Part shown: piece after piece, positions 9,201 to 30,400 of the stretch | How the letters are laid out: each line of letters starts with the position of its first letter | Position numbering within the stretch: position 1 is the first letter of the stretch | Source of the DNA: Podarcis cretensis | Lineage: Eukaryota | Assembly (NCBI GenBank): GCA_951804945.1 | Contig: OX638149.1 | Coordinates: 83,018,001 to 83,082,000, forward strand | Direction: 5' to 3' | DNA: 64,000 nucleotides | Position numbers and translations under genes: made by a program | Notes under the pieces: model-generated | What the model saw: the letters and a program-made list of their open reading frames with translations, nothing else | The model's database searches: none | What the model was told of the DNA's origin: nothing

Positions 9201-12200
9201 ATGGTCTTGATTCACTTTTTCAAGTTCCAATAAATATTGTTTGGCAAAAAAGAAAAAAAATTGAGAGCCATCTAGGATGCAGGGAGAAACTGTGTAAATC
9301 ATCAATTCTCTATTTGTGGAATTAGAAATTAATAAACTCTGGAATTCCCTCTTGCCTTGAAAAAGTGGATATCAGCATTGTAGTATCAAAAGAATGCAGT
9401 TTGAGTCTGAAGAGACACAACATGTAGCACTGTCTCCTTGGGAACCGTGGCCAGTGGAAAGAGAATCTCTAGGTGTTGCAGGGAAGTTGCTGAAAATAAA
9501 TAGGTCTGTATTATTTATTGAGACTATACTGTATTGTGTGTAGGGAAGAACTCTTGTGTCAGGCCTATTGCATGGTTCAAAAACTGCCCAGAAACACAGC
9601 AAATAAAATAAAAGCTGTTACCTATTTGAGACATGACCAGATAACCAAGAATGTGCAGGTCTTGCTCACATGATGCTTGCAAACACATTTAACATGATCT
9701 TTGGAAGGTTTCAATAGCATCATCAACAGCCACTACCCTTGTTCCTGATGATAAGTCATCAGGAAACTACTTTGTAGTATATGTGTGGGTGGTGTTGCTG
9801 GATATGCACTGTTTTCTCCTTCCCTGTAGCTTATGTGATTCTGCCTTAGGTTCCTGGAGGCTATTGGGGACATTCTTCTGATGGTGTGGGCTTTTCATTG
9901 CCTTGCAATGGCAGTCAGTATTTGCTACAAGGCTAGAGTGGTCTTGTGCCCCTACTGTCTTAGTTTAGTTGAAAGTGAGTATCACAAGCTGTACTGTGGT
10001 CTTTACTGAGGAAATCTAAATATATTTTTCTTGATGTCAGGAAGCTAACAATAAGTAAGTTTCCAATCTTCTGCTTTGCAGATTTAAGACGTATCCTAAA
10101 AATAGAATTAAGTGCTGATAGCTTGAAAATGTTGAAGTGACTTGATTTTCCTATCACCCTTTAATATCACTGCTGTTCTTAATTGATAACATTTTGTTAG
10201 TAGTAACTTTTCTTTTTCTTATGCGTAATATCCATTCCTTATTGCAGATTTGTCTCGTACTACTATGTAAAACTATTTCTACTGCTAGTAAGCTTTTTGT
10301 AGCATGTACTACTTTCTACTTGAAGACTTCCCAGTATTTGACTTTATAAAGATTGCTTGAAACAGGAGCTGCTGCTATGTTTAAAATGGTCTGAAACACC
10401 CAAGTTTCTTTTATTCTAGATAATTGGAATGTAACAAGCATATCACTAGTTCTATGAAACCAACAAATGGTTGTGACCTGCATCCCAATATATTGACTTT
10501 AATCCAATTTAGCATACTCATGCTAAAGCCCATTGAAAACAATGTAACAGGCTAATTGCGATTAAAAGTTCGATTCATTTCAGCGGAATTAAGCACATCC
10601 ATCTGAAATTAAGACAGTGACCATGATTCAGTACATGCCAGAAATCTGATGTTCTTGATAACATATGATAAATAGTTGAATTCAAACCCATAACAAATGC
10701 TAGAATTTGATTGTTTATATCCTGCATGAGTTTTTGCAGTCTTGCTAGTTTAAAACATTGAAGAATCCTTCCGGTGGGAAGCCATACCTTACAATAATCT
10801 GTGAATTACAGTAATAGTAATGTGTATTTGTTTTATTTATTCAATCTATTAGTTGCTTTTTTACCAGAGAAACACAAAGCGACTTTGAGTATATAAACAG
10901 ACACACACATTAAAACTGGCATAAAGGAAAAGAGGAAAAAATCTGAAAAATAACCCTGTTTTTAAAAGGCAGTACAAGCTTTATGTTCTAGCTGCTGCTG
11001 TGTATACAAATTGGGCCAGATTATGTTGCATGGGAAGATGAAAATTTTATATACCACTCTACATAATACTGAATTTCATATATATATATAGAGAGAGAGT
11101 GTGTGTGTTTAGTTGTTTATATCCCATTGTTACTGCATTCCATCTTCTAGATAACTTTAGGCTGATAGGAATTATACATGTGTGTGCATAATGTGCATAT
11201 TCATGTATTAGAATTCTTTTACAGTGCATTTTTTTAGCTAGCAAAGGATTGCAGTGTGAATCACAGAAGACTATAACTACATTTTCAGAAGACCAGTGAA
11301 ATATCATTAGAGTTTCAATATAATTGTTTGCTTCTGATAGTGACTCTTTAAATGTTGTGAGGATGAAATAGTACTGCATGATACCTAACTCCTCTGAAGA
11401 AAAATGTAGAGGCTGATTTCTAGTGGAGTTCAGTATAAATCTTGACACAACCTGATCACCTTTCATGAGCAGCCTGCAACATGATACTGCTCAAATAATC
11501 CAAAATAGGGAAAGAAACCAAGAGGCCTTTCTGCCAAGTTGAGTGGCCTCTTATAGAGGTTGGTGGTTATGCTATATGTGATACTCCTTCACTGCATATA
11601 TGCAACAAGGAAATACCGCTCATTGGAGCAGTGAGGAAAATGAGATGGGTCTGCACACAGTGTAGATTGGGGGAGGGGGGGTGTAAAAATGTGGTTCGAT
11701 TACCCAGTCCTCCACAAAGAATGGAGAGGCAAAACGTCTTGTGCAGTAATAGATGGCAGTGAAACATGCATTCTCCTCATCTCAGAGAAAATGATGGGGA
11801 GCTTGGGGCTACATGAAATAGCTAGTCCTACTATACTCTTTGCTCTTCCTTGCAACTAGCAAAAAGAGCACGCTTCTTTTTGAGAAGCAGGTTTTACATT
11901 ATTACTTAAATTCTAGAAAATTATTATTTGGTATAGGTGTGCTGCTATTCTGTTACGAAAAGAACTAATGTGGAGAATTGGCCCTGCTTCGGCTCTGCGT
12001 GTGCTCAGTGATATCTTGTGTCTTCTAGGACTCTGAGTTTAGTAATGCTGACCAGATGGATCTATATGACGACGTGCTAGCTGCCAGCTCACAACCTTCT
12101 GAAAGTTGCCCTAGCAGCTCCGAGCCACCACCCGAAAACCGTCAAGAGCAGTCTCCTAAGCCAAACAGCAAATCACCTGCTATCCTGTATACCTACAGTG

Positions 12201-15200
12201 GGCTGCGTAATAAGAGGGCTGCTGTTTATGTAGGCAGCTTCTCTTGGGTGAGTGCGTTCCATAATCGGAGCAGAAAGTAAAGGGCCTAACAAAAACAAAA
12301 CATTTGTGTGGAAAGGCTGCATCTGCACTTTAATCTTACTGCAGATGCACTGTTCTTTAATAGAGTATAGAGCCCCATGTGGGTGGGTAGGTTTTATGCT
12401 GCTTGCCAACCTCAGTCCTCACAACACATTGGATAAATAACTAGAAGCATTGTTCATTATGACACATTGCTCTGTTTAGGACATTTTTATCCTGCTTTTC
12501 TCACAAAGACTCAACAGTGGCTTCAAATAAATATGCTACAGCAACATAGTATTCCGTACTATGCTAAAAAGCAACACATCTCAGAGTTGGAGAATATGAT
12601 GCTCTTGCATTAGCAGGGTAACTTTTAAGAGAAGAGGATTTAACACATTTAAGATACATCAGAAAATATGATAATAGTAGAATTGAGGCCCTTAAAACGC
12701 CATGATAGAGACATTTTCACAAATTTTTCTGTAGCTGGCATACAGGTATGAGAGTTTTCTATGAATGAATCTCTTAGGACCTGAGTAAGTCATATTGGGC
12801 CTGCTGTGTCATGATTTAGGGTGTGTACACTCATCACTGCCCTAAGTGCATGCAGTTCTCTTTAATACCTGTGGTATGTGCTGGGAAAGGGATTGCTGCT
12901 GCTGCTCCTTCAGTTACGTAGGTCTGTCTAGAACTTTCATCTTCTAGGAAGATACATGTTCACACATGTACGTGCTCACACATCTGCAGCTCCAAAAGTG
13001 ATTGTAGTGGGAGGGGTTTAATCAAATGTTCCTTCATTAGACTATACCAGGAACAGTATAGGAGCTTGAGAAGGATGAGTTCTCTTACTAATATAAGATG
13101 ATGTGGGTTCTCTAAAAGGTTTCAGGTTATAATGTAATTTTCTGCTTCTTCATACATAGTGGACAACTGACCAGCAGCTGACCCGAATAATCCGTTCTGT
13201 GGGTGTTTATGATGTGGTGGAACTCAAGTTTGCTGAGAACAGAGCCAATGGCCAGTCCAAAGGGTGAGCACTCCAAGACTGCTTCAAAAAAGGACCCATC
13301 ATTCGGGGCTGTTATTGTGGGAGGAATGATCTAGGGACCAGTGTGGTTGATAATGGTGTGCACTTAAGTCTGGTTTTCTTGCTATTTTTTTAAGGTGGCC
13401 TTAGAAGTCCCTGTAACTGTCCGGTTTGGATGCCACTGCCTTCAAACTAAATGACTACTTGTTATATGTGATTCACGAAGGCGGTGGGCTCTGTCCAATT
13501 CTGCAGAGCGATCCCTTGTCAATGTGCTATTTGCTGCTGCTCTTAATGACAGCTTTAATTTGGAGAGCATGGAGCTGAAAATTCTGCACTGTTAATGACA
13601 CTGTGCTTGTGGACAGCGGGGTTGGCCTGAGAAATCGATCAAATTGGGAATGAGAGAACCTTGGGCCTGTGGACCCCATCTGGCCATCAGAGGATTCCCA
13701 TCCAGCCTCCACAGCCTCTTGTTCTTGGCTCCTGGGCTGGCTGTGAAGGGCAGTGTTAGAAACTGGGATAGGAATACTAGGAGCCATGTGGGTGCCAAAC
13801 CAAAATGTGTAGTGGCCCATTTTTATTGCTCCCCCCACCCCCACCAGACCAGGCAGCCCCACAGCAATAAAAATTAAAATTGCTGCTGGGTGACTCAGGA
13901 GGTATGCAGTGTAGTGTGGCAGCAAAAGACAAGTCTTCTGCTACCTCTCTACCCTGCCAAACACCTGGTTCACCTGGCAGCGGAGCAGCAGCAAAAAACA
14001 AAGACAGATGGAGATGCTAGGCACCAAAAGTGGTGCCTGGACATCTCCATCAAGTTGCAAAAGGCCAATTGCAAAATGTGACTGGTGCCCGCTAATTTCA
14101 AACCCTGGTGGAACGAGCTCTCTGTCTCCCAAGCTATCACAGTGGGAGATAAAGGGATGAAACCCCTTACCTCTCGCTCCTGACATGGATTGGGCCCCCA
14201 CACCTGCAATTTGCCGGGAGGGGGGCACTCACATAGGAACAAATGGGAGGTTTCCCCTCAATGCATCTGTGTGTATGCGAGAGAGATAAATGTAATGAAT
14301 GGTGTGAGCTCATATGTGTGAGCAGATGAGGATGTGGGGGGTGAGAGAGGGAGTGTTGTGGCCCTGTCCAATTTTTCCTCCCATCCCACCCACCAATGCT
14401 ATATAGCAGTGACATTTTGTAGACCTTGGGTGGGGGAAGATTTCTTGTCTTGGATTAGATGACATTCCTTACTAGAAGTTGCTGACAGTCTTCAGTTCTT
14501 TTTCCTCTGTGACCAGGTACGCAGAAGTGGTGGTTGCCTCTGAGAACTCCGTCCACAAACTTCTGGAGCTGCTACCAGGGAAGATTCTCAACGGAGATAA
14601 AGTGGAAGTGAAGTTGGCTACCCGGCAGAACCTTGCACAGTTTGAGGCTCAGGCTCGAAAAAGTAAGTTTAGATGGGGGTTGCATTTGCTAAGTAGGGAA
14701 CAAGGCAGAAATACAGGGCATTGGTTAGGTCTTAGAGAAACCTGAGCAGAGCTTAAGTTACAGTTGGATGTGTATGAATATCCAGGTGTCCATGTATATT
14801 TCCTTTTTCTGTTGCTGCTGAGTGATGCCCAAGTAGATTTTATTATCCCCTTGCATGATTTGTTGCATGATTTGAGGCACGCTTCAAACTGAATGGGCTT
14901 AAGCTATTGAAGCTGTTATAGCTAGGACCACCCCCAGCTCCTCTCTGAACCTTCTCCAGAATTTGTGCAGCCCTGAAAAGGTAAGGTGCCCTGTATTGGA
15001 TGCAGTGCTCCAGCTGAGGCCTTACCTCTTGGTCATATAATTCATTTACTATTATTTATAAAACACATATCCCACCCTTTCTCCCAAAGGAGCCCAGGGT
15101 GGCAAAGGAGGACCATAATAGATGGCCCTGCTTGTCAATTTCTGTGAAAGGTATGCTGTTGTATGTACTATCTGACTTAGTAAGTGGAGAAGAGGACAGT

Positions 15201-18200
15201 TTCCTCTGTTGTTTGCAGAATTAATCTGGACAGTTAGGATCCACCGTTTTGTATGATCCTGTCATAGTCTCAACTGACTATAGAGTTGCAGCCTTGTCAG
15301 CTTTAGCACAGCTGCGTTTTAATGGCCTCCATGTTCTGCCCTAGAAATTGACTGAATTTCAGTGCAGAAAGTCATGTTGTTCCTATGTCCCTTATCTGCA
15401 CGGGGTGTCATGGTGCCTGTGGTCCATTTCTCTGTGGTAGGAAGGTCAGTCATTGTTGCTGAATCATAAGATGAAGCAGAGCTGCTTTTAGCCCTCATCA
15501 AGCTTTTCCCTGTGAAAAACTGCTTAAAGGGGCTTATCTTATCTTCACTAGGAGGTCGCGCTGGTGAATGGCAACGCCTGACAGTAACCATGGCACGTCA
15601 CCATTTTTGACAAGGCCTTCGTAAATGACTTCCACCACTTTGTGATTCCTCGCCCAAAGGGCCTGAGAAATACAAATTTGTTGTTTTTAGTAATTTTATT
15701 TACACTCTGCCTCTCTCTAGCCCCCAAAGTGGCGAACTGTAAAGCAGACAAGCCAGTACGATAAAGAAAAACACATGCACAAGTTAAACGTTTGAAGTTC
15801 TCTTTATTGCACTCTCCTATTTATCACAAAGGAAACCTAAAAGTGGCTTCCGTTCGGTGACCATGAAGTGAATTTTTAATGTAATTCAGACATGTGCTGA
15901 GTTTGAAATATGAATGTTATTAGATTATCCCAAACTTGCTGTCACCAAGTCTCATGTGGTGATGGTATAACAGATTTCTGTGTCCCTAATTATTGTGTGT
16001 CATTGCAATTGTATGATCATGGTTTTTTTCTTTTGAAATGTTTCTCAGCTATATTTGCAATTAATTAATTTTGCCACATTGGGACAAGATCGCAATATGT
16101 TTCAAAATCCATCTTCTCAACATTCTCTCCATGTTTTTTTTAGTTTTTTTTTTTAGTTCTTTTGATTATTGATTTCTTTCAATTATGCTTTAGATTCTCT
16201 ATCTTGAATAAAGGTCTTAATTTTTAAAAAAAATAATGTATCAAATCTCATAACATACTATAGTTGAGCTTATTGTACATTAAAATTCCAAATTAAGATG
16301 ACACAGCTTTTTTTAACCTGGAGTTTTTGAAATAATATATTTTTGCTTTACGCAGACATTGTAAATCTTTGTAAATACTTCCTGTAATGCCCTTCCATAT
16401 TATTGCCATCTTGGTTTGTGTCAAATAAAGTTGACTAAGTACAGTACTTTGGTCAGCATGGCTTGATTATTTCTCTGGGGTCAATAACTCTTCATTGGGA
16501 AGAATAAAGGAGTCATGTTTCCAGATTTAGGAAGCTTTCTGACTTTGAGGCCAAGCAACCGGCCTGGTGGAGCAATGGTGGATAATATTGATTGCCTTCC
16601 AGTACTTGGGTATTGTCCCCTTGTTTTTCTAACGTTGCATTTATTAAGAATGTCGATTTCTTAATTGTAGCCAGAAGTATTCATGACAACTGAATCTAGT
16701 TTAATTCATTAGTCAGGATCTGCTGATGTATCTAAAACTATATTGCTCTCACAAGGACCATAAGTTTTCTTCCATTCCACAGATAGTTGCTTATTTTATG
16801 TAGAAGGAGATGCAGTTTGTATTACAGATTAAGGTTCAGAGACTTCTCTACATCTACATTTTGTATTCTATGAGAATGGAAATGTTGATTATTTTCTGGA
16901 TGTAGTGGAAAACACTCAGTTTGCAGTAGGTGTTCAGGAAGTAGTTCAGTGACTTAAAAGTAGCAATATGTATATAAGCCTGTTGATATTTGCCTTTATA
17001 TAAAGCAACGTATACGCATATATTGCAAGGTAGTTGATATTGGCATATTAGGTTTTAATATTTCACTTTATTGAAGAATTCTACTAAAATAACCAAATGT
17101 TCTGCTGAGTGTATTCACTAAGCAGTAGGTTCCTGAGGTCATTATTTCAGGGGACAGGGGGAGGAGTGGGAGTTAGGCATATCTCCCAAAATTATGGGTC
17201 TTGAGGATTCTGTATAATTGTGTAGTGTTAGAATGTTCAGTTTTCCACTCATTAGAATACTTATAATGGGAAAGGAGTAGGGATAACACTATAGCCAATT
17301 AGTGATTTTACTGAAGACCATTCTTGCATAATCCAGTGCTTGTATAGTGTTAGCCAGAATTTCAGACACATTTTACATAATTAGTTAAGAGAATTAGCTC
17401 AGTGAGAAGGCCATTCATGTACAGTTTTGTGGCTGTTGCCTGCAGTTTTCAGAGGGTAGAACAATTGCTTTGTCTGCAGAAGTTTCCATATTTAATCCCT
17501 GGCATCGCCATGTAGGATTGGAAAGAGTCTTCTCTGAAGTCCCAGAGAGCTACTGCCAATCAGTGTAGACTATACTGAACAAGATGTGTCGATCACAGAA
17601 TCAGAATTGTAAATGTTCTGACTTGGATTAAGTCAACTTCCAAGTTCCTAGTCATCAAATGATAACCCATTTGTGGTGTTACGTTTGCACATTGGGCTTC
17701 CATTAACACATTGAACTCTGCTCATGCAGCATTGGATACAACACCGTCTATTTTAGTTGTCACTGTACTAAAGTGTGGGTTAGTCAAATATTCTCCTTAT
17801 ATTCAGCATGGTTTGATTATTTTTTATGCTGTCTGTCACATTTTCGTTCTTTTCTCTTGAAGCTTCCTGATTTTGCTTTTCCTTAAATGAGAAAGTTCAA
17901 TACATTTGTCTCTGATAGTATGTGATGTTCTAATTAGTTACATTAAAAATGAATATTTTAATATATCTTTCTATATAATATAACATACTGACTATGGCTG
18001 AGATGTAAACAACACAGACACCAGTTCAGATTTCACCTTGGCTATAAGCTCAGTAACTAGGTAATATTAGGTAAGCCACACTTTTTCAGCCTAAACACCT
18101 ATCTAGAATCTTTGCGATAAAGATCTGTCAAGTAGGTTTATTAGCAAGTTTACTGTGCTAATACATAAAGCATTTTGAACACACTATAAGCACTATATGA

Positions 18201-20290
18201 ATGATAAGTATTACTTGAATGCTCAGGCAAAATTTATTTCACTGAAAGTGAACAATGTAAAATACACTCAATACATTCTAAGACCATAAATGAAATGTTC
18301 TCAGTTCAGTTTGGACACACTGCTATTGTAAATTGTAGTTAAAGTTAAGCATTGATTTAGCATGTTATGCTGCCTGTCCATCTGACTCATAATCAGTGCA
18401 TGATACAACTATCTCTGTCAACTCAGCACACAACACTTAAGAGAGCTCTTACAGGTCTCTTGGCCAAGACTGGGAATGCCCAGTTCCAGAGCAGGAAGGT
18501 ATCTCTCTAGATACCTCAACATTTGCCCAAATCAACCCAAAAATCTGTGTGCACATACCAATGAAACCTACCTTTTCTCACATGTATGAGATAAGAGTTC
18601 TGATATTTGGGCAAGGTGTTATTGCAATTCAGAGGCATGATGGTTGACATGGGTGTACTTACTGGAAAGCGGGGAGAGGGTTATTTTGTCAGAAAACTGA
18701 CCTACCCAACTGCTACAGTGTTGAGCGCTTTTCCTCTTCTGTGATGTCTGACAGGGGTGCCTCCGAGGGCTCATTCAAGGGATTCCTCCGACTTGATAGA
18801 TGGCCGAGCCACTCCGACAGAGAATGCTGTGCCGCCGCCACGCATTGAGAAGCCTCCTGTGTTGCCTTTCTTCAACCGCCCTCCTTCTGCGCTTCCTCTC
18901 ATGGGGCTGCCACCTCCACCCATACCACCCCCTCCTCTTTCCTCAAGCTTTGGGGTTCCCCCTCCCCCTCCAGGAATCCACTACCAACACCTCATGCCCC
19001 CTCCCCCTCGACTTCCTCCACACCTCACTGTGCCACCTCCTGGGGCCGTGCCACCTGCGCTGCACCTCAACCCAGCCTTCTTCCCCCCACCCAATGCAGC
19101 AATGGGGCCCCCGCCAGACACCTATAACAAGACCTCTGCAGCATACAACCACAGCAGGTGAGAGCAAGCCCATTCCCGGGAATCTGAGAAGAAAAAAAAA
19201 ATCAAAACTAAGCAGTGCAAAGAACAGTAGCTAAGCCTCTTGTTTAGCAAGGCTGCAGACCTAATTCTCCAAGGGCTTAGTTATTTTATGCAAAGAGTGA
19301 TGGATCGACTAGACATGAAACCACTTCTCGTTGGTGGTAGAAAATGTCTCGTATAGCTCTAGAGCACGACAGCTGACAACTTGGTTCTTAAAGGATGCTA
19401 CTTAATGTCTGCTTTGGGGGGGGGCAGTACCTGGTCAACCACACATTGCTGTTTTGAAAGGCCTTGAATTGCCATGTCTATGAATAAGGAACTGTGTCAT
19501 AGTTCTGCTTGAAGCTGTTTATCCTCTGTGTGTGATGGGTATGTGTTTGTGTACTACAGTCGGGAACTGGGCCCATTGCCACCTCCTGTCAGTGAAGCTG
19601 AATTTGAAGATATCATGAACAGGAATCGAGCAATTTCCAGCAGTGCCATTTCCAAAGCTGTGTCTGGTGCCAGTGCAGGTAACCAGAGCTGGCTTTTGCT
19701 ACCTCTTGCCATTTCTCACTCCTGGTCTCATTCTTACCATGCCGCCTTTGCTCTGTTATATTGCAGGAGACTACAGTGATGCCATTGAGACCCTGCTCAC
19801 AGCCATCGCTGTGATTAAACAGTCACGTGTCGCAAATGATGAGCGGTGTAGTCTCCTTATCTCTTCACTCAAGGATTGTCTTCATGGCATTGAAGCCAAG
19901 TCTTACAGCATGGGCACCAGCAGCAGCTCCTCCAGGTGAGCTTCAGGCACAGTTATTGCCAAGTCATCCAGCTACTGTCACTCATGTTGCTGATGAGCAA
20001 GTCTCAGTTGTGCTCTGGTCCCCTTCCTGGGCTTTGTACAGCCAGGTAGGAATAAGTGCTTTTGGTAGGGGAAAGGGTCTTGTTACAGCTTGCCAGTAAC
20101 TGATACCTCATTTTTTTCCAGAAAACGGCACCGGTCTCGGGATAGATCACCCAGTCGGTCTCGTGAGAGCAGCAGGAGGCACCGAGACGTCGTCCATAAT
20201 GAAGATCGGCATGAAGACTATTTCCAGGAAAGAAGCCGGGAGCATGAGCGACATAGAGACAGGGACAGAGAAAGAGACCGACATCACTGA
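2991..20290 (+). CDS. CPSF7: Cleavage and polyadenylation specificity factor 7 (CFIm59), 460 aa
   Basis: Coding exons 2991-3044, 12029-12247, 13160-13263, 14517-14662, 18755-19157, 19560-19678, 19767-19935, 20122-20290 total 1383 nt, in frame. Starts [18 protein letters not shown]; contains an RRM ([14 protein letters not shown]...NGQSKGYAEV), a Pro-rich region and an RS/RD/RE tail. Non-coding exon 1 ends at 2551 and exon 2 starts at 2934. Confidence 0.97.
4660..4840 (+). mobile_element. Old tRNA-derived SINE (Squam3-like)
   Basis: CAGTGGCAGAGCA...CCCTGGAGA...TGCCAGTCAGT...GGTCTGACT; related to copies at 7310 and 17430. Confidence 0.55.
6152..6430. mobile_element. PIF/Harbinger-like MITE
   Basis: TIRs GGTCACATTCA...TGAATGTGACC flanked by TTA on both sides; a related decayed fragment near 49040-49210. 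Confidence 0.65.
7310..7497 (-). mobile_element. Old tRNA-derived SINE (Squam3-like)
   Basis: GGAACATGGGAAGCTGCCTTATACTAAATCAGACCATT... is the reverse complement of the same family. Confidence 0.6.
16360..16429 (+). promoter_or_regulatory. Candidate intronic poly(A) site in CPSF7 intron 5 (three TGTA plus AATAAA)
   Basis: TGTA at 16360, 16370 and 16383; AATAAA at 16424-16429; flanking AATAAA near 16207 and 16503. Confidence 0.5.
17430..17651 (+). mobile_element. Old tRNA-derived SINE (Squam3-like)
   Basis: GGTAGAACAATTGCTTTG...TAATCCCTGGCATC...TGCCAATCAGTGTAGAC. Confidence 0.55.
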
Positions 20291-20699: not shown

Positions 20700-21038
20700 G
20701 TAAAAGCCCATGGATCCTCAGGATTTTTGCATTGGGTCACCCAAAATTCACCATCAGATCACATAGCATGTCCATGGCTACAGCCTGCACCAAAAAAATC
20801 ATGCACCCACTGTTTCGTTGGGGCCGCAGTAACGCAAAAACGTGGTTACAAAGCATGGATCCACATGGATTCTCAGGATTTTTGCATTGGGCTACCCCAA
20901 ACTCACCATCAAATCACATGTTTGTGGCCACAGCATGAACCACAAAAATCATACATCCACTGTTTCATTCAGAATATTTTTTTTCTTGTTTTTCTCCTCT
21001 AAAAACTAGGTGCGTCTTACGAAGCGGAAACTACGGTA
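20700..21038. mobile_element. DNA transposon remnant with an internal tandem duplication
   Basis: Two diverged copies of CATGGATYCTCAGGATTTTTGCATTGGG...CCACTGTTTC near 20710 and 20863. Ends GGTGCGTCTTA...TACGG|TA, resembling a mariner-class terminus. Confidence 0.5.
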
Positions 21039-21521: not shown

Positions 21522-23730
21522 GAGCGTGGGAAGCATTCAGTGTTTTTATGGACTCTTATCTCCTCTCCTTAATCAAGACTAAAATATGGAGACTTCTCCA
21601 CCCCCTCCTTCCCATTGCCCTCTGCTCTTTCCGAACCCCTTGGAAGGGACTTTGCCTGCAGAACTCCATCTGGCACACCATGGTATTGGGACCTGAGCTC
21701 TGCCTGTGTGCTGTCGCTGCTGCTTGATGGAGAAGCACTGAATGACTTGGAGGGTGGGAGGGGTTGGTTGTCTGAGCCACCGTGACCAGGGGGCCACTTC
21801 AATCCATGGATTCTTGGACCCAAAGAGAATGGTGCTTTCCACAGAGGTCTCTCGCCTCTTTCCTTTCCGTGGCTTTTTTAGGAGCACTGGGGAAGGAGCC
21901 CATCCAGCTCGTCTCCTGCGAGAAAAACTGGTGCTTCAGCACAGTATGAGATGTCTGACCCTATTCTCCCCGGAACTCGTGTCCACGGTCCACACTGCAT
22001 TGTTTTCTTAGGCATCGAGGCATCCATTCCTCCTTAAATCTGATCCTTTTTCCAAAGCAGCTTCAGTCTTGCCCTCCAGCACCGTTGTACACAGCTTAGA
22101 AAACAGTATTTCCCTGCTAGGATGGAAGGCAGGCTGGCTGCTTCTTCGGGTCACCCCTCTTCTCCCTTCCTCCTTTAGTTGCGGGAAAATGTCACCTCCT
22201 TTCTACCTGGCTTCTTCTAGAGGGGCCTGCGTTGGTCAGCCGGCTCGCAACGTTGAATCTCCCTTAAAAAATAGATCTGGCTACTGCAGGTCCGCTTTCC
22301 ACTGATTTGCTAACCATTTTCCTCGCTTAGTTTCATGCAATAGCTGCTCCAGTTGTAACTTCTGATGTAAACCTTTGTTTCTGGGGCCAGCCCCTCCCAG
22401 ATTGCCGCCTTCCTTGTTGTAGAGGAAGTGTTGTGAACGGAGACCATAGAATGGAACAGGGCAAAGTCAAGCTGGGGCTACCTGGAAGTTACCGAATGCA
22501 GCACACCCTAAGCATTTTTAAAATTCTATGTGATGTACTTGTTGAACGTGTTGATTTAAGGTCCAGAGCTTTCCTTGGCCCCTGCCTCCTTTTAAAAGGA
22601 GTTCCTTTTTGGAGTGGTTCACTCATGAGTTTGCTTCAGATAGCACCATACCTCACTGATCTCTGGCATGCCAGTCTAGGGAGACGATTAGAGACAGTGG
22701 GAGGTGTCTCTTCACACCATCATATTTAGCTGTGTTATGTAATCGTAAGTAGGGTTTCTGGAGCCACTCTAGTCACCAGGCAGCCCTTTGAGACCAGTTG
22801 CAGTAAAAACCTGCTTGTTCGGAGCATTATGGGACAAAAGCACCTGCAGAGCTCTCACCTTTGAGTTGCAACCCTTCGGGTGTTCATTTTCAGCTTTCAT
22901 TGCTCCATCCTAGCCTGAGCACCCAGTTACTTAAAATTAAGGTAACACGTTACACCCTGGAATATGCAGTCTCCAGCAACTGGGTCTCGGTAGTGAGGCC
23001 AAGCATCTGTTGTGTTCACGAACACTTAATGTGATTGTTCAGCTGCATGGTGAAGCCTCCCTTGTAGAAGGACCCTGTTTTGTCTCACAGAACAATGTTG
23101 TGGCCCAAGGCGGAGGGGGTGGTGTCTGGCAAAGGATGTTCTTGTGTGATGTGGCACCTCCTTTTGTACTGTTGATCACAGAGGTGCTCAGCTCTAAATG
23201 TGGTTTTTTAAAAAAATAAAACGGGGAAAGTTGTGTAAGCAATGGAGCGACAACTTAAAATGTAAAATATATTAAAAATTGATGATTGGAAAAGTTGCTT
23301 TTTACATAATGGACATTTTTAGTTTGTTTTGAAATAATGGAAGTAAGAAAAGAAAGAAATGAAATAACAGAAACATAGCCTTGGTTCCTCTCAACTCACC
23401 CCCCCCCCCCCGTTCTTCGTGATTTGATTTGTTTGTCTTTTTCTGATAGGTTGGAAATTGTGTAATAAACTTGATGATATTGTCAATCTTTTATACTGCA
23501 TTGTATGGCTTCTTTTCATTTTGTAACTATTTTGAATGCTGGGTGAGCTGTTTTCTAGAATCTCCACTAAATATGAGCAGGGGGCAGGGAGGATGGAAAA
23601 GAAGATGGATAGATAAGACAGGTGCCATATTTTGGCTGGGTAGTAGCCCTTGTACAACCATGGTGTTATGTACTGCTAAACTAGTTCCAAAACCACTTTA
23701 TGTACACATATTAAAATGATTTTTTTAAAA
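21522..23730 (+). other. CPSF7: CPSF7 terminal non-coding exon (3' UTR) with several poly(A) signals
   Basis: Donor at 20296, 5 nt after the stop; acceptor tctctttctag at 21521. AATAAA at 23215 and 23464; ATTAAA at 23271 and 23710. The 3' end is approximate. Confidence 0.7.
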
Positions 23731-24337: not shown

Positions 24338-24430
24338 GATTGTGATCTAAAGGGCCAGGATTAATCTCAAGTGAGCCCAGATAACTGGTCTGATGAATGG
24401 GTACCATTCAAGTCTCTTGTTATTCTCACC

Positions 24431-27400
24431 ATGACATACTCACTAGAATTTGGCCTTGTTAATGCGGCCAACCGGTACCTGACTGCTGAACCTTTCCGTT
24501 TCCAGGTGGCAGCCACAGGCAAGCAACTGAAGCCTCGCCAGTTGTGGGTACTGCAGTTTGTGAGCCCACAGGGAGCTGGGGCAGCTGGCCCAGGAGAAGG
24601 GGCTGGCCAAAAGCTTCACCTGATCAGTGCACTGAAACGCTACTTGGCGGCTGACGCAAATGGAAAAGTCACCTGTGACCAGGACAAACCAGGGCCTCAG
24701 ACCTTCTTTCTCTTGCATCAATATCCAGATGGCAAGGTGCTGTCTCTCACCCAAGCACAAGCATCCTATCTCTCAAGTGTAGCTTATGTCCAATATTATC
24801 GGGCTGGAATTCTGGACAAAGAGGGTTGGGTGTGGTTGGGTGGGTGAGACAGAGGGCAGAAGGTAGGAAAACAATGCTTAAAGTTGCCTCAATAGGGCCT
24901 CAAAACTATTCCGCTATTGCCCAAATGTGGGCCTCTTGTTTTGCTTACAAATGTTTTTTACAATTAAGAGGAAGAAATGAGGGCAGGATTGTGCTCGATT
25001 TGCAGACTAGTTTGCTGTGGTGAGAAGCAGGGCCTTTTCTTAGTGTGCAAGTTTTTAGATTCTTACGGGTAAGTCCAGGCAGCAGATTCCTGTAAAGTGC
25101 ATCAGGAAGAGTGTAAAATGTCCCTGGACTTCCCCCACCCCACCCCCATGGTCTCCTTGGGAAGCCAGTCACATGAGCCAAAGCTCTTTGCCCCTGTCGG
25201 CCAAACAGTATGATAGTCAGCCACTATGGGCTGAAGGGGAGAGAATGTGTCTGAATAGCTTATTTGAGTCCCTGTGCCTGGTGTATCCTTCAAGGTGCCC
25301 TAGCCACTTCCCATCCACAACTGGAAACAACTGTTGCACAATGGAACTTAGGTGATCATGGCAACTCCATAAGCCAAAAGGTGTAACATAATTGGTGTGA
25401 TGATACCTGAATTTTATTCTGCCGTGTTCTTTGCTCATTGAGAGTGTTCCTGCTTTTCTTGTCTTGGGCAATGTAGCTGACCAGACATCCTTCCCTCCCT
25501 GCAGGTGTCCTTGCAAAATGAACAGTCCAAGCGCTACCTGGGTGGAGCAGAGGAGAACGTCACTTGCTTTGCCCAGGCTGCCACCGAAACTGAAAAATGG
25601 ACCCTCCACCTGGCTGTGCACCCCAATGTTGCCATGTACAACCCCAACAGGAAGCGTTATGTGCGGTGTGATGATAAAACTGGGGTGCTGCGCTGTGACC
25701 GTGACATGCCCTGGGGAGCTGAATCAGTCATCACTATCTACTATGATTTCAGAGGTGGGTGGTGGCATTTTCCTATTTTGTTTTCAATTGATATGTGCAT
25801 TTTTCTCTCTAATACTGTAACACACATCTCCCCCCCCCTTTGTTGGGGGAGCGTGTTAAAGAAGCAAAACATTCTGCTATAGGGTTACACACACACACTT
25901 ACAGTAATTCCTGTTGCAGATGAGGACTTATAGCTACTATACTAACAAGAAAGTTGCTTCTTCTGAACTAAGGATTGTTTAAAGTTTTCTGTTATCCTCT
26001 CCAACTATGGAGCAGACACCTGGGGTAAGTCTGAACACCTGGAAAGACTTGAGAAATTTGAGAGATGGAGGAAGTCTGTACCGGTCACAGGCTTTCTCCT
26101 CCCACAGTGAGAAAGTTGCTACTTTATTCTACAGATGTTTGTCTGCTTGTGATTTTACCTGTACATGAGGATTTCTAAGTGCTACAGGTGGGTGGGGTGG
26201 CCTGGGAAGGCAGTAAGTGCTTCTAAGTGGAAGGTCTTAATTCAAAAAGTTTGAGTGACACTGCCTTATTTACACATCTCTATCCAAAAGCCACCCAAGC
26301 ACCTTCTAAGATAGTCCTCTGTTATTGATGTGTGAAAAAGTTCAGTTTGAGTCATTTGCATCTCCTCCAATAGGTCTGGAGTCCAATGGTGAGAGAAGGC
26401 AATTTTCCCCATACATACCAGGTGAATTCAAATTCTGTTTACCCAAGAAGTCACTGTGGCTGGCAGGAATTTTGGTTTCCTTAACATCATTAATTAGCTT
26501 GGGTAATTCTTAGAACTACTAATTGCCCTATGCAAGACTTTCTGGTAAGTTAGACACCAGTGCAAACTTTCCAAATAAGACAAGAAAGGGAATTGTCTGT
26601 ACAGAGAAGTTTCCAAGTGCAAATCCTCTTTCCTGACCGTATTGATGTTGGAGGTTCCCCACTCTCTCACACACACTTTTAAGTGAAATTGCACACTAGG
26701 CTAAAGAATCTAATACAACCAGTTTTTAAAACACATGTAGTGTGGATAAAGGTGTGTATTAGTGCAGATGAGAACATTATTTCAATCCCAATCTTAGCCT
26801 GCCTGTGCCCATGGCACATCTCACTATACCTGGGTTGGGGCAATGGCCTCTAACTTTATCAAGCACACACGTAAACCCCCAAAGTAACTATGCAAGAAAA
26901 ATAGGGTGTAATCTACGAGGAAACAAATGCAGTGTCAGCACCACCAACGCTGTACAAAGCTGAGACCCAATGAACGTCAACTTGCCTATCAGAACAAAGC
27001 ACAGGGGGCTGTTTACACACATGTACAAATGATATATGAGATTCTGGGCAAGGGAAATACAATGGGAAATGTTAAGGGCGAACAGGACTAGGGTACTCTA
27101 AAGGGTTGGTGTTTGGAACTGCAGGCAGGGTGGGCCTGTGTGGCAATTCTGCAGTGAAACAAGCATCAACTCTGATGCTACTTTGTAAGACAACTGATTT
27201 GGAGATTGTTTTCCAGGACTAAACATCAAGCTGCTGTCAACCTCTCATTTCTCTCGCCTTTGTCTCCAGCAAAGAAGTATGGATTGAGGAATGGGGCTGG
27301 CAAACTGTTGGCTTCCAATGGCTCACTGGTGCCAGATGTTACCCCACAAACGTTGTACTCCCTGGAGGTGCATGGCGGCTTGGTCGCTCTGCGGGATGAG

Positions 27401-30400
27401 GAGGGAAAGTACTTGACTGGGCGAGAGGGTAGCATGAGAACCGTAAAGATGGACAAACCTGGACGGGAGGAACTCTTCAGCATGGAATCCAGCCCTGCCC
27501 AGGTCTCTATGCGCTCTTCTTCTACTAACAAGTTTATTTGCTGCAGGCCAGGTAAGTCAGGAGAAAGCAGCACTATCTATATTGCATTGCACTTTGTGAA
27601 CCCTCTGAAGCTGATTGGCTGTTCCTGTCTGATGAGATAGAATGTTTGTGACCATTCCACCTGCTCAGAAAATGAGGCACGGTGGTAGTCCACATTCTGC
27701 AAGCAATGGGGCAGTTGTCAGTTTGGTTGGGTAAAACTGAGATAAGACTGACTCAGGAGGCAGGGTGAAGGCTGGGAGGAGTTCTTAGGAGGTAGGTAAG
27801 CTTAGATGCTGGGACCTCAGAGGCAAGATGGATGAAGAGAGGGTGCAGAAGTAAGAAGCAGGAAAAGTGCACATACAATTGAAGTGCAAGGATCCAGTAA
27901 GATTATGGTCCCTGAAAAAACCCACAGCATTTCTTATTAAAAGTGGTGTGACAGAAGTGCTAGGGAAGCTTGCACGTGACGTTTTGTGCTCTTAAACCAG
28001 CCTGCCTCCAAAGATAAAGATAGGAAGGTCCAAATGATCCTAGGTCAGTTGACACACAGACAATGCCCCCATTCTCTGCACCATGTTTTCCTCTTTCAAT
28101 CCACAAAACACTGATTTCAGCCTGCAAGGAGTGGGCAATGGCATATGTAGGAATGCTGACCTAGGGTGTTTCTTCCCTGCCCCCTGCAGGTGCTGATCTC
28201 TATGCCAATGCTATGGCTGTTGGCAACACAGAGATCTTCCAGGTGCTGTTTGATGACACCACAAAGAAGGTCTGCTTCCGTAGCCACAGCGGCGCATATA
28301 TGTCCTTGGTGAGTGTGCCTGCCACGCGTTACGAGGAACAGCAGCGATCAGACAGGACCTAACTATGTTTCCTAACCACGGGGAAGGACGGCAGCTCATA
28401 GGTGGTAGAGCACCTGCTTTGCATGCAGAAAGCCCCAAGCTTTTTTCAGCCACAGCCACTCATTCCAGTCTTGTCCCCAACCTCCTTCCGACTATATTCT
28501 ACAATGGGCAACACTGAGACTAAGGAGGGAGGAAGCTGACAGGCAGTCCCACCCCACGACTGGTTGTGAGAATGTGGGGACTGATCAAGGGCAGAGTGAG
28601 GATGGTGGGGCAGGGCCCCTTTTGCCCTAGTGGATCAGCCTCCACTGGATACATCTGTGCCCAGATTGTGGTGCACCAACTTAATCTGGAATTCTTTTAA
28701 ATGTGAGCAAGGAGGTGGGTGAGCTGCATCCTCGACACTTGGCTGCGAGCATTCACAAAAATTGTGGCCTGCTTCAAAAAACAAAACAACTTAAGCTTGA
28801 AACTTGATGTAGTAGAGGCTTTGCCACCTCAGGTGTTCACCAACTCTCCCCAGATGAAGAAGATATATCTGTGCCGTGTGTGTATTAATACAGAAAGGCA
28901 GGCTGCAAATCAAGAGGATAATAATATAGCAAGCAGGGAACTGATAAAATGAGGCTTGTTAAATAGCAGTAGATAGCTCTTGGTCCCGGACTTGTTTGTT
29001 AATGTTAGTAAGGATTGTCTCAGTCCTTTTCCAAAACATTTTTGTCAACTTTAGTGCGGGTGGGGGGAGTTACTCTATTCTACAAAGCAAAGCAGGGCAT
29101 TATACACAATCCTCCTTGTGGAAAAGTGAAAAATTGTTTTTTGTACACTGAGGATGGAGAACCTGTGGCTCTCGAGTTGTTGTACTCAAATGCCTATTGT
29201 CCTTGATCATTGGCTGGCAGTTATTACTCCAACATCTTCAGGGCCTCAGGTTTCTCATCCCTGCCACAGATGAAATATGTAAGAGTGCAGTAGGAATGCA
29301 CAACTTCCTGAACAACCTCTTAAGAGAAAGCTAACTGCTTAAGCCTGGAGGGCTGGAGACATCTTTTTCAGGTCTGCTATTCACTTACCTGGGAGTAAAA
29401 CTTACTTATAAGTAGAGTTGAAGGTGATCTTCTGGCTGCATTGTTGTTCATGGTGTGCACATACACTATCTGCTGTGGACCATGGTCAGAAATTTTACAG
29501 ATTTTTGTTGTGCTTCAAAACTTATACTACATCTAACATACCATTTAGATGTAGTACCTTATACTACATCTAACATACCATTTAGAAATCTTAATAGTTT
29601 GGCTTCAGTCTGGGCTATGGTTCACATAGTGCAACTTGAAGTGTGAAGTCAACAAGAAAGTGGCTTTGAATAAAGCCAAGGTCCACCACCATCCCTATCT
29701 TGCTGATGCTAGAAACCCTCCACTTTTGGAGGTAACTACTGCTGGATGCGGGTGGCGCTGTGGGTTAAACCACAGAGCCTAGGACTTGTTGATCAGAAGG
29801 TCGGCGGTTCGAATCCCCACGATTGGCTGAGCTCCTGTTGCTCGGTCCCTGCTCCTGCCAACCTAGCAGTTCAAAAGCCCGTCAAAGTGTAAGTAGATAA
29901 ATAGGTACCGCTCCGGAGGGAAGGTAAACGGCGTTTTCGTGCGCTGCTCTGGTTCGCCAGAAGCGGCTTAGTCATGCTGGCCACATGACCCGGAAGCTGT
30001 ACGCCGGCTCCCTTGGCCAATAAAGCGAGATGAGCGCCACAACCCCAGAGTCTGTCATGACTGGACCTAATGGTCAGGGGTCCCTTTACCTTTACTGCTG
30101 GACTAACCTCCCTGGTATTGAGATGCTCATGCATTGCTGTACTCTTGTGTTGCATCACCCACCACAATGGGATTCTCAGTTGATGCAGCACCCAATATCT
30201 TCCACTGAAAATATATCAACATGGATCTCAGAACATAGCTGATAAAGGGACTGCAGCAGGAGGTTTCTATCAGACAAAGTAAGCTGAAAGCACAAAAAGC
30301 ACTTTCCAACGAATGCATCCTGTCTTTTGCAGGGTCCTAATGACTGTATTAACAGCAACACTAAACAGGACAGGAATGTCTGGTTCGACATCCAGTACCA

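Follow-up and report, generated by a model that had tools for sequence, protein, structure and literature searches.

A candidate UGUA-equipped alternative last exon in intron 5 of the lizard CPSF7 gene

Intron 5 of CPSF7, the gene of CFIm59, follows the exons of the RRM, and the question raised by this locus is whether transcripts can leave the gene within this intron, at a poly(A) signal on which CFIm itself would act. The window analyzed here, a stretch of 64,000 nt of Podarcis cretensis (OX638149.1, positions 83,018,001 to 83,082,000), carries a squamate, lacertid-type CPSF7 (CFIm59) on its + strand. Reading of the gene structure places the ATG at 2991, exon 3 at 12029-12247, exon 4 at 13160-13263, exon 5 (the last RRM exon) at 14517-14662, intron 5 (4092 nt, largely covered by transcript contigs) at 14663-18754, and exon 6, encoding part of the Pro-rich region, at 18755-19157. 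Over its first 406 residues, the assembled protein shares 99% identity with Podarcis CPSF7. The protein of a relative (P0029) contains both RRM_1 and RSLD_CPSF6 domains and matches a CPSF7 chain with an E value of 5e-69 versus 1e-38 for CPSF6. The preliminary description of this locus had named CPSF7 and an intron behind the RRM exons, which is confirmed by these boundaries. No Rfam match was obtained within the window and no tandem or direct repeats of relevance were found. Two tandem-like copies of 110 nt with 81% identity are situated at 20709-20969 in a 3' intron of CPSF7, and ORF pieces further downstream (24365-29200, + strand) presumably belong to a fascin-like gene. At 14663-14690 there is no GT matching the 27-nt alternative donor extension of the mammalian 471-aa form of CPSF7.

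Splicing was assessed in run data, of which 23 runs were listed; 18 of these, from three related organisms, were guessed to be RNA, none being recorded as such. Four runs (X1, X5, X8, and X13), one per study from four studies, were aligned to positions 13100-19300. These data are assembled contigs of close relatives, not of the window's own species; they give evidence of presence, not of absence, as rare forms are dropped, and contig depth is a poor measure that cannot rank parts of the gene. Introns 4 and/or 5 are skipped at GT..AG in all four runs, which thus hold spliced RNA. The joint of exon 5 to exon 6 (14662 to 18755) occurs in every run, in contigs with a depth of 22 (X5), 192.9 (X8), 76.7 (X13), and 134.5 (X1). 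A second GT..AG joint, from the same donor (AAA/gtaagt, common to both routes) to 15552, occurs in X5, X8, and X13 with contig depths of 37.1, 41.8, and 32.5, from three organisms and three studies, and was not seen among the contigs of X1. The 3' splice site in use (15532..15551, + strand) consists of a pyrimidine tract with a score of 0.76 and an AG at 15550-15551. The alternative exon is very probably genuine in the close relatives.

None of the five joints listed leads out of the 15552 exon, in contigs that drop rare forms, and the exon is probably terminal. We delimit it as 15552..16450 on the + strand, with a 3' end presumed to lie between about 16130 and 16700. A poison cassette exon of the AS-NMD type was considered and rejected, as the contigs of the four runs show no exit joint; the donor-like sites at 15444, 15563, and 15880, the best of region 15400-16700, are unjoined to 18755. 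The truncation of CPSF7 to an RRM-only form by an exon of intron 5, as proposed in the preliminary description, is borne out by the joint from 14662 to 15552 and the apparently terminal nature of this exon, but acceptor and tail peptide differ from those proposed. The acceptor favored there, at 15721, is present with a good pyrimidine tract (15701..15720, + strand) inside the 15552 exon and yields the predicted peptide; reads joining it to 14662 had been expected and none exists in the contigs of the four runs. Minor use of this site may occur, since contigs drop rare forms. The further candidate entry acceptors 16356 and 14823/14837 are likewise plausible in sequence and without a joint in the four runs.

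Among close lizard relatives, the exon diverges at about half the rate of the flanking intron. Compared to the window, substitutions in the exon amount to 6/576 (1.0%) in X5, 13/774 (1.7%) in X13, and 12/899 (1.3%) in X1, versus 68/2378 (2.9%), 108/2859 (3.8%), and 46/1718 (2.7%) in the flanks; the corresponding values for coding exon 6 are 0.4-1.2%. Fisher p values of 0.011 (X5), 0.003 (X13), and 0.026 (X1) are not independent, as the window's own changes are common to all comparisons. X8, whose contig is not divisible into exon and flank, was left out of this test, the exon pieces end at 16127 in X5 and 16325 in X13, and the flank of X13 includes one piece at the border of intron 4 and exon 5. 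No substitution is listed for 16290-16486 in X1 or X8, two runs of one relative; the listing for the X1 contig covers 37 of its 39 substitutions and 18 of its 33 gap letters.

Intron 5 contains AATAAA only at 16207, 16424, and 16503. TGTA occurs at 16274, 16360, 16370, and 16383, the last three being located 64, 54, and 41 nt before 16424, and two of them lie within TTGTAAAT at 16359 and 16369. All positions of hexamers and tetramers given around 16424 in the preliminary description proved correct in the sequence scan. Additional motifs are a TGTA at 16237 and an ATTAAA at 16279, in which both X1 and X8 carry a change (position 16282). The three tetramers (16360..16386, + strand) are predicted CFIm25 sites, and the best-equipped hexamer at 16424..16429 is the likeliest candidate for the exon's poly(A) signal, with a G+T content of 0.625 in the 40 nt downstream. 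The hexamer at 16207..16212 represents a rival signal and that at 16503..16508 a possible back-up, both on the + strand and both without TGTA in the 100 nt upstream.

In the whole window, both strands considered, 103 AATAAA were screened for TGTA at -80..-30: 73 have none, 26 have one, three have two, and the only one with three is that at 16424. In 3000 dinucleotide shuffles, such a signal arose with P=0.008 for intron 5 and P=0.002 for 15900-17000, in a test whose window and criterion were picked post hoc, after the site was known. TGTA is somewhat over-represented in intron 5 as such (36 seen versus 25.7 expected), with a density of 9.5/kb after the site versus 8.9/kb in the exon. The presumed distal signal at 23464, probably the gene end, has no TGTA at -80..-30. 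The spacing of UGUA, about 40-100 nt upstream of the predicted cleavage, is that of a CFIm site: provided that cleavage takes place near 16445-16455, the three UGUAs fall inside the zone from -100 to -41, which is UGUA-enriched at CFIm-dependent sites according to the accessible part of PMC4407891. On motif content, an exon end at 16424 is slightly favored over one at 16207. The expected cleavage zone is covered by a predicted 12-bp hairpin (16430..16457, + strand) of doubtful significance, with folding z values of -3.15 for the trimmed piece and -1.21 for 16415-16465. Its loop contains a CA, and an alternative 5-bp stem at 16419-16434 would partly enclose the hexamer. No structure signal was obtained for 15520-15900 (z of -0.04) or 16330-16480 (z of 0.63).

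Taken as a mechanism, exon 5 is spliced, as seen in the relatives, either to exon 6 or to the 15552 exon, with a stop after 19 codons. The latter exon, likely the last, would likely be cleaved at the UGUA-rich AAUAAA at 16424, and putative CFIm binding there would divert transcripts from full-length CFIm59, resulting in negative feedback, possibly exerted by CFIm59 complexes themselves. To this reading as a whole, a terminal exon ending at 16424 plus putative CFIm feedback, we assign a probability of about 0.37. Given a last exon ending at 16424, the chances are even that the 15552 acceptor and a CFIm-enhanced signal act by exon definition, in competition with the joining of exons 5 and 6, and a putative homeostatic loop of physiological size is, overall, somewhat less likely than not. 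The short site of TRIM9 is driven by CFIm via UGUA and CFIm59 favors proximal poly(A) sites (PMC9458458, accessible part), which makes such a feedback reasonable.

It is tempting to compare this exon with known attenuators, for which we refer to the accessible parts of the respective papers. The intron-3 site of CSTF3 (CstF-77) likewise generates short transcripts by intronic polyadenylation in the gene of a 3'-processing factor and could sense processing activity, as proposed here for CPSF7; in that case vertebrate conservation and feedback were demonstrated, and the site combines a weak 5' splice site with no apparent protein (PMC3708835). In contrast, the exon-5 donor of CPSF7 is near consensus, the exon has its own acceptor (a skipped last exon), and the feedback is putative. 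Similarly, premature cleavage at PAS1 within an intron of PCF11 itself cuts full-length mRNA, but PAS1 belongs to intron 1, its conservation extends to zebrafish, and its role was proven by deletion (PMC6458999), whereas the CPSF7 exon lies in intron 5, after the complete RRM, with conservation seen among close lizard relatives only. TRIM9-S resembles CPSF7 by several UGUAs upstream of the AAUAAA at the end of a short isoform; its site is activated by CPSF6/NUDT21 and requires a twin UGUAYUGUA (PMC10476966), while the tetramers of CPSF7 are 6 and 9 nt apart, thus not of the twin type, and the gene is that of a CFIm subunit. In the paralogue Cpsf6, too, regulation acts through splicing of the intron that follows the RRM exons; exon 5a (intron 5) is an in-frame cassette of 111 nt there, in addition to unproductive exon-6 splicing, but the control is by SRSF3 and not by the intronic polyadenylation proposed for CPSF7 (PMC7948361). 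In the detained intron of MAT2A, intronic UGUA and CFIm can steer terminal-intron splicing via RS domains; for MAT2A, CFIm promotes productive splicing, in a gene that, unlike CPSF7, does not encode a CFIm subunit (PMC8139829). By analogy, the CPSF7 exon is a plausible, unproven CFIm counterpart of the intronic poly(A) attenuators of CSTF3 and PCF11, a class defined by conservation and dose response.

Nearly as probable as CFIm feedback is a real attenuating last exon whose use is set by tissue or by the balance of splicing and cleavage, through a weak exon-6 acceptor, U1 level, or Pol II speed, with UGUAs that merely make a competent signal or with cleavage at 16207. The pyrimidine tract of the exon-6 acceptor (0.65) is indeed weaker than that at 15552 (0.76), and the share of the 15552 joint in the exon-5 joint depth, itself a poor measure, varies widely (0 in X1, 0.63 in X5, 0.18 in X8, and 0.30 in X13). 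Mammalian data, taken from the accessible parts of the sources, point the same way. In CPSF6-KO A549 cells the CPSF7 protein level is unchanged, though human CPSF7 does shift between two sites with a PolyAIndex of -0.31 and -0.32; these two, both in the 3' UTR, are the CPSF7 sites in the supplement (PMC12802250). Knock-downs of CFIm59 and CFIm68 have no effect on each other, and knock-down of CFIm25 lowers both without an explanation at the mRNA level (PMC9458458). CPSF7 is lower in CPSF6-haploinsufficient fibroblasts (PMC9937581), Srsf3 knock-down lowers CFIm with a change of only +0.19 log2 in Cpsf7 mRNA (PMC7948361), and LPS lowers Cpsf5 while Cpsf7 mRNA is 'not reduced' (10.64898/2026.01.31.703030). 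As CPSF7 does not rise upon mammalian CFIm loss, these data speak against a strong feedback; they are confounded by co-stabilization of the subunits, and an intron-5 site is outside their measurements. Also in agreement with such a balance, or with cleavage at 16207, is the high-depth contig of X13, which stops at 16325, 100 nt short of 16424, and fits 16207 or AT-rich drop-out equally. Against it stand the block of three UGUAs, unique among the 103 AATAAA, the freedom of this block from listed substitutions in the two runs of one relative, and its location in a gene that itself encodes a CFIm subunit.

The contigs gave no called molecule end. Beyond about 16.1-16.7 kb, contig depth drops, which is a weak hint of an exon end. 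It amounts to 27.1 over 15552-16325 and then 4.8 in X13, to 34.8 over 15552-16127 and then 6.4 (16386-16995) in X5, and to 17.3 over 14634-16678 and then 5.7 in X1. The missing contig cover at 16128-16385 in X5 proves nothing, and the single contig of X8 (15552-17727, depth 15.4) is not divisible. Contigs of all four runs cover intron 5, and unspliced ones span its boundary at either end. This cover includes both flanks of the exon (depth 7-17 upstream and 5-18 downstream), so intron 5 is partly retained too.

The latter observation leads to an unlikely explanation in which intron 5 is spliced slowly (detained), the route via 15552 gives an unproductive, partly spliced RNA that extends as far as exon 6, and an end is simulated by AT-rich drop-out or by priming at A-rich stretches. 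Besides the covered flanks, the unbroken contig of X8 and the contigs across the intron-exon boundary (18222-18784 and 18150-18784) agree with it, as do a GC content of 0.18-0.26 near the step (16100-16350) and an A8 run at 16226, 3' of the AATAAA at 16207. Together with bird and mammal records in which exons 2-5 are spliced and intron 5 is read through (P0305, P0306, and P0121), the contig cover suggests that intron 5 is detained. However, in X5 and X13 the depth stays at 4.8-10.8 over 16400-17900 and does not return to 27-35 where GC normalizes. The A-run is shorter in X1, and in X13 a gap of 8 nt at 16223 takes away most of it, so internal priming does not explain the step in X13. Furthermore, a full signal with UGUAs is located at the depth step.

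Truncation in intron 5 is also recorded in birds and frog, by sites other than those of the lizard exon. In six bird proteins, four of them from assembled contigs, exons 2-5 are joined to a stop-bearing intron-5 exon (P0011, P0025, P0096, P0218, P0225, and P0307). P0193 reads through to the same bird peptide, 56 codons past exon 5, which places the bird acceptor about 170 nt into the intron; it is thus not the counterpart of 15552. The truncated bird proteins have 192-203 aa; that of Xenopus (AAI67355.1) has 195 aa and ends 21 residues past the RRM, by donor read-through as we infer; we take its MGC origin to mean a cDNA clone. The lizard, bird, and frog tails are unrelated, and the pigeon tail is frame-shifted compared to other birds. 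An indirect peptide test gave no match to 15552-16450 in birds or mammals, and a metagenome scan for host contigs gave at least one locus with 44% identity, which is uninformative. At 16596-16631, 170 nt downstream of the signal, the bird intron-5 peptides P0088 and P0113 match in different frames, with E values of 2e-4 to 5e-3 versus controls of up to 2e-3, a weak sign of conservation.

A decayed LINE ORF2 remnant, which we take to be of CR1 type, is located at 14846..15055 on the - strand (seven matches, two of them with Pfam RVT_1; 46% identity over 39 aa to P0358). Bird intron-5 peptides match 14886-14915 and 14936-15022 within it, and the alternative acceptor of the birds falls at the edge of the remnant. 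From these matches, the bird exon is possibly an exonised old insertion common to birds and lizards. A poison exon conserved between birds and lizards at 14837-14980 was dismissed, as the lizard runs have no joints at either end and relatives carry frame-breaking deletions at 14853-14862; the cross-species matches in this region lie inside the LINE remnant and may thus reflect the old common insertion. It appears improbable that intron 5 is an old CFIm sensor, realized by a terminal exon of its own in lizards, by an exonised LINE remnant in birds, and by read-through in frog, whose CFIm-driven use would remove full-length CFIm59 mRNA and make a CFIm25-titrating, RRM-only subunit, and would so tune the balance of CFIm59 and CFIm68 and global 3' UTR length. 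Elsewhere in the gene, many annotated mammalian CPSF7 forms of 93-102 aa end after exon 3 (P0243-P0250 and P0255), some of them common across Boreoeutheria; the window counterpart is intron 3 (12248-13159), and unproductive splicing around this intron may be the mammalian control point of CPSF7. Diverged partial CPSF7-like copies, possibly duplicates or retrocopies, occur in Pogona and elapid snakes (P0122, P0242, P0134, P0142, and P0144), and the copy of Pogona ends directly after the RRM.

The coding part of the 15552 exon (15552..15610, + strand) comprises the junction codon, 18 codons (15554-15607), and a TGA at 15608-15610. In silico, 19 residues are added and a product of 193 aa results, in which the RRM is complete and the Pro-rich and RS regions are absent, exon 6 being the first exon missing. 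The solved CFIm59 chain 3n9u_C, presumably from a CFIm25 complex, aligns to residues 47-176, all of which are kept, and if translated, the short form would retain the CFIm25-binding RRM. Neither the 15552 tail of the lizard nor the 15721 tail is present in any of the 356 proteins compared. An mRNA with its stop codon in the last exon escapes junction-dependent NMD, as would the short CPSF7 mRNA. Least probable of the alternatives is that the protein is the purpose, an RRM-only CFIm59 holding CFIm25 as a putative dominant-negative in certain tissues: the complete 3n9u_C segment, the similar lengths of the bird and Xenopus forms, and the inactivity of CFIm59/68 without RS in a tethering assay (PMC8139829, accessible part) agree with it, but tails unrelated across lizard, bird, and frog, with a frame-shift in pigeon, are as expected for a non-coding purpose.

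As for precedents within CFIm, no paper on intronic polyadenylation of CPSF7 or on a like self-regulation of CFIm was found in a full-text search that is thin on subscription papers. CPSF7 gave no match in the accessible supplements of PMC5928244, PMC9937581, PMC8139829, and PMC10476966; that of PMC6458999, as far as accessible, holds abundance tables only, the accessible parts of 10.1101/2025.03.06.641848 and 10.1101/2024.07.23.604837 matched only for CPSF73, and that of PMC8989530 had nothing to add. It is possible that an intronic CPSF7 site is catalogued in poly(A) databases, which are outside a literature search.

With or without feedback, the 15552 exon defines a sizeable, apparently unannotated CPSF7 isoform in lizards. 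CstF (through CSTF3) and CFIIm (through PCF11) have an established intronic poly(A) feedback; none was found for a CFIm subunit in the full-text search. CFIm is a main regulator of 3' UTR length, with an unsettled role of CFIm59, and a UGUA-loaded exit exon in CPSF7 offers a concrete handle on how CFIm59 dosage is set.
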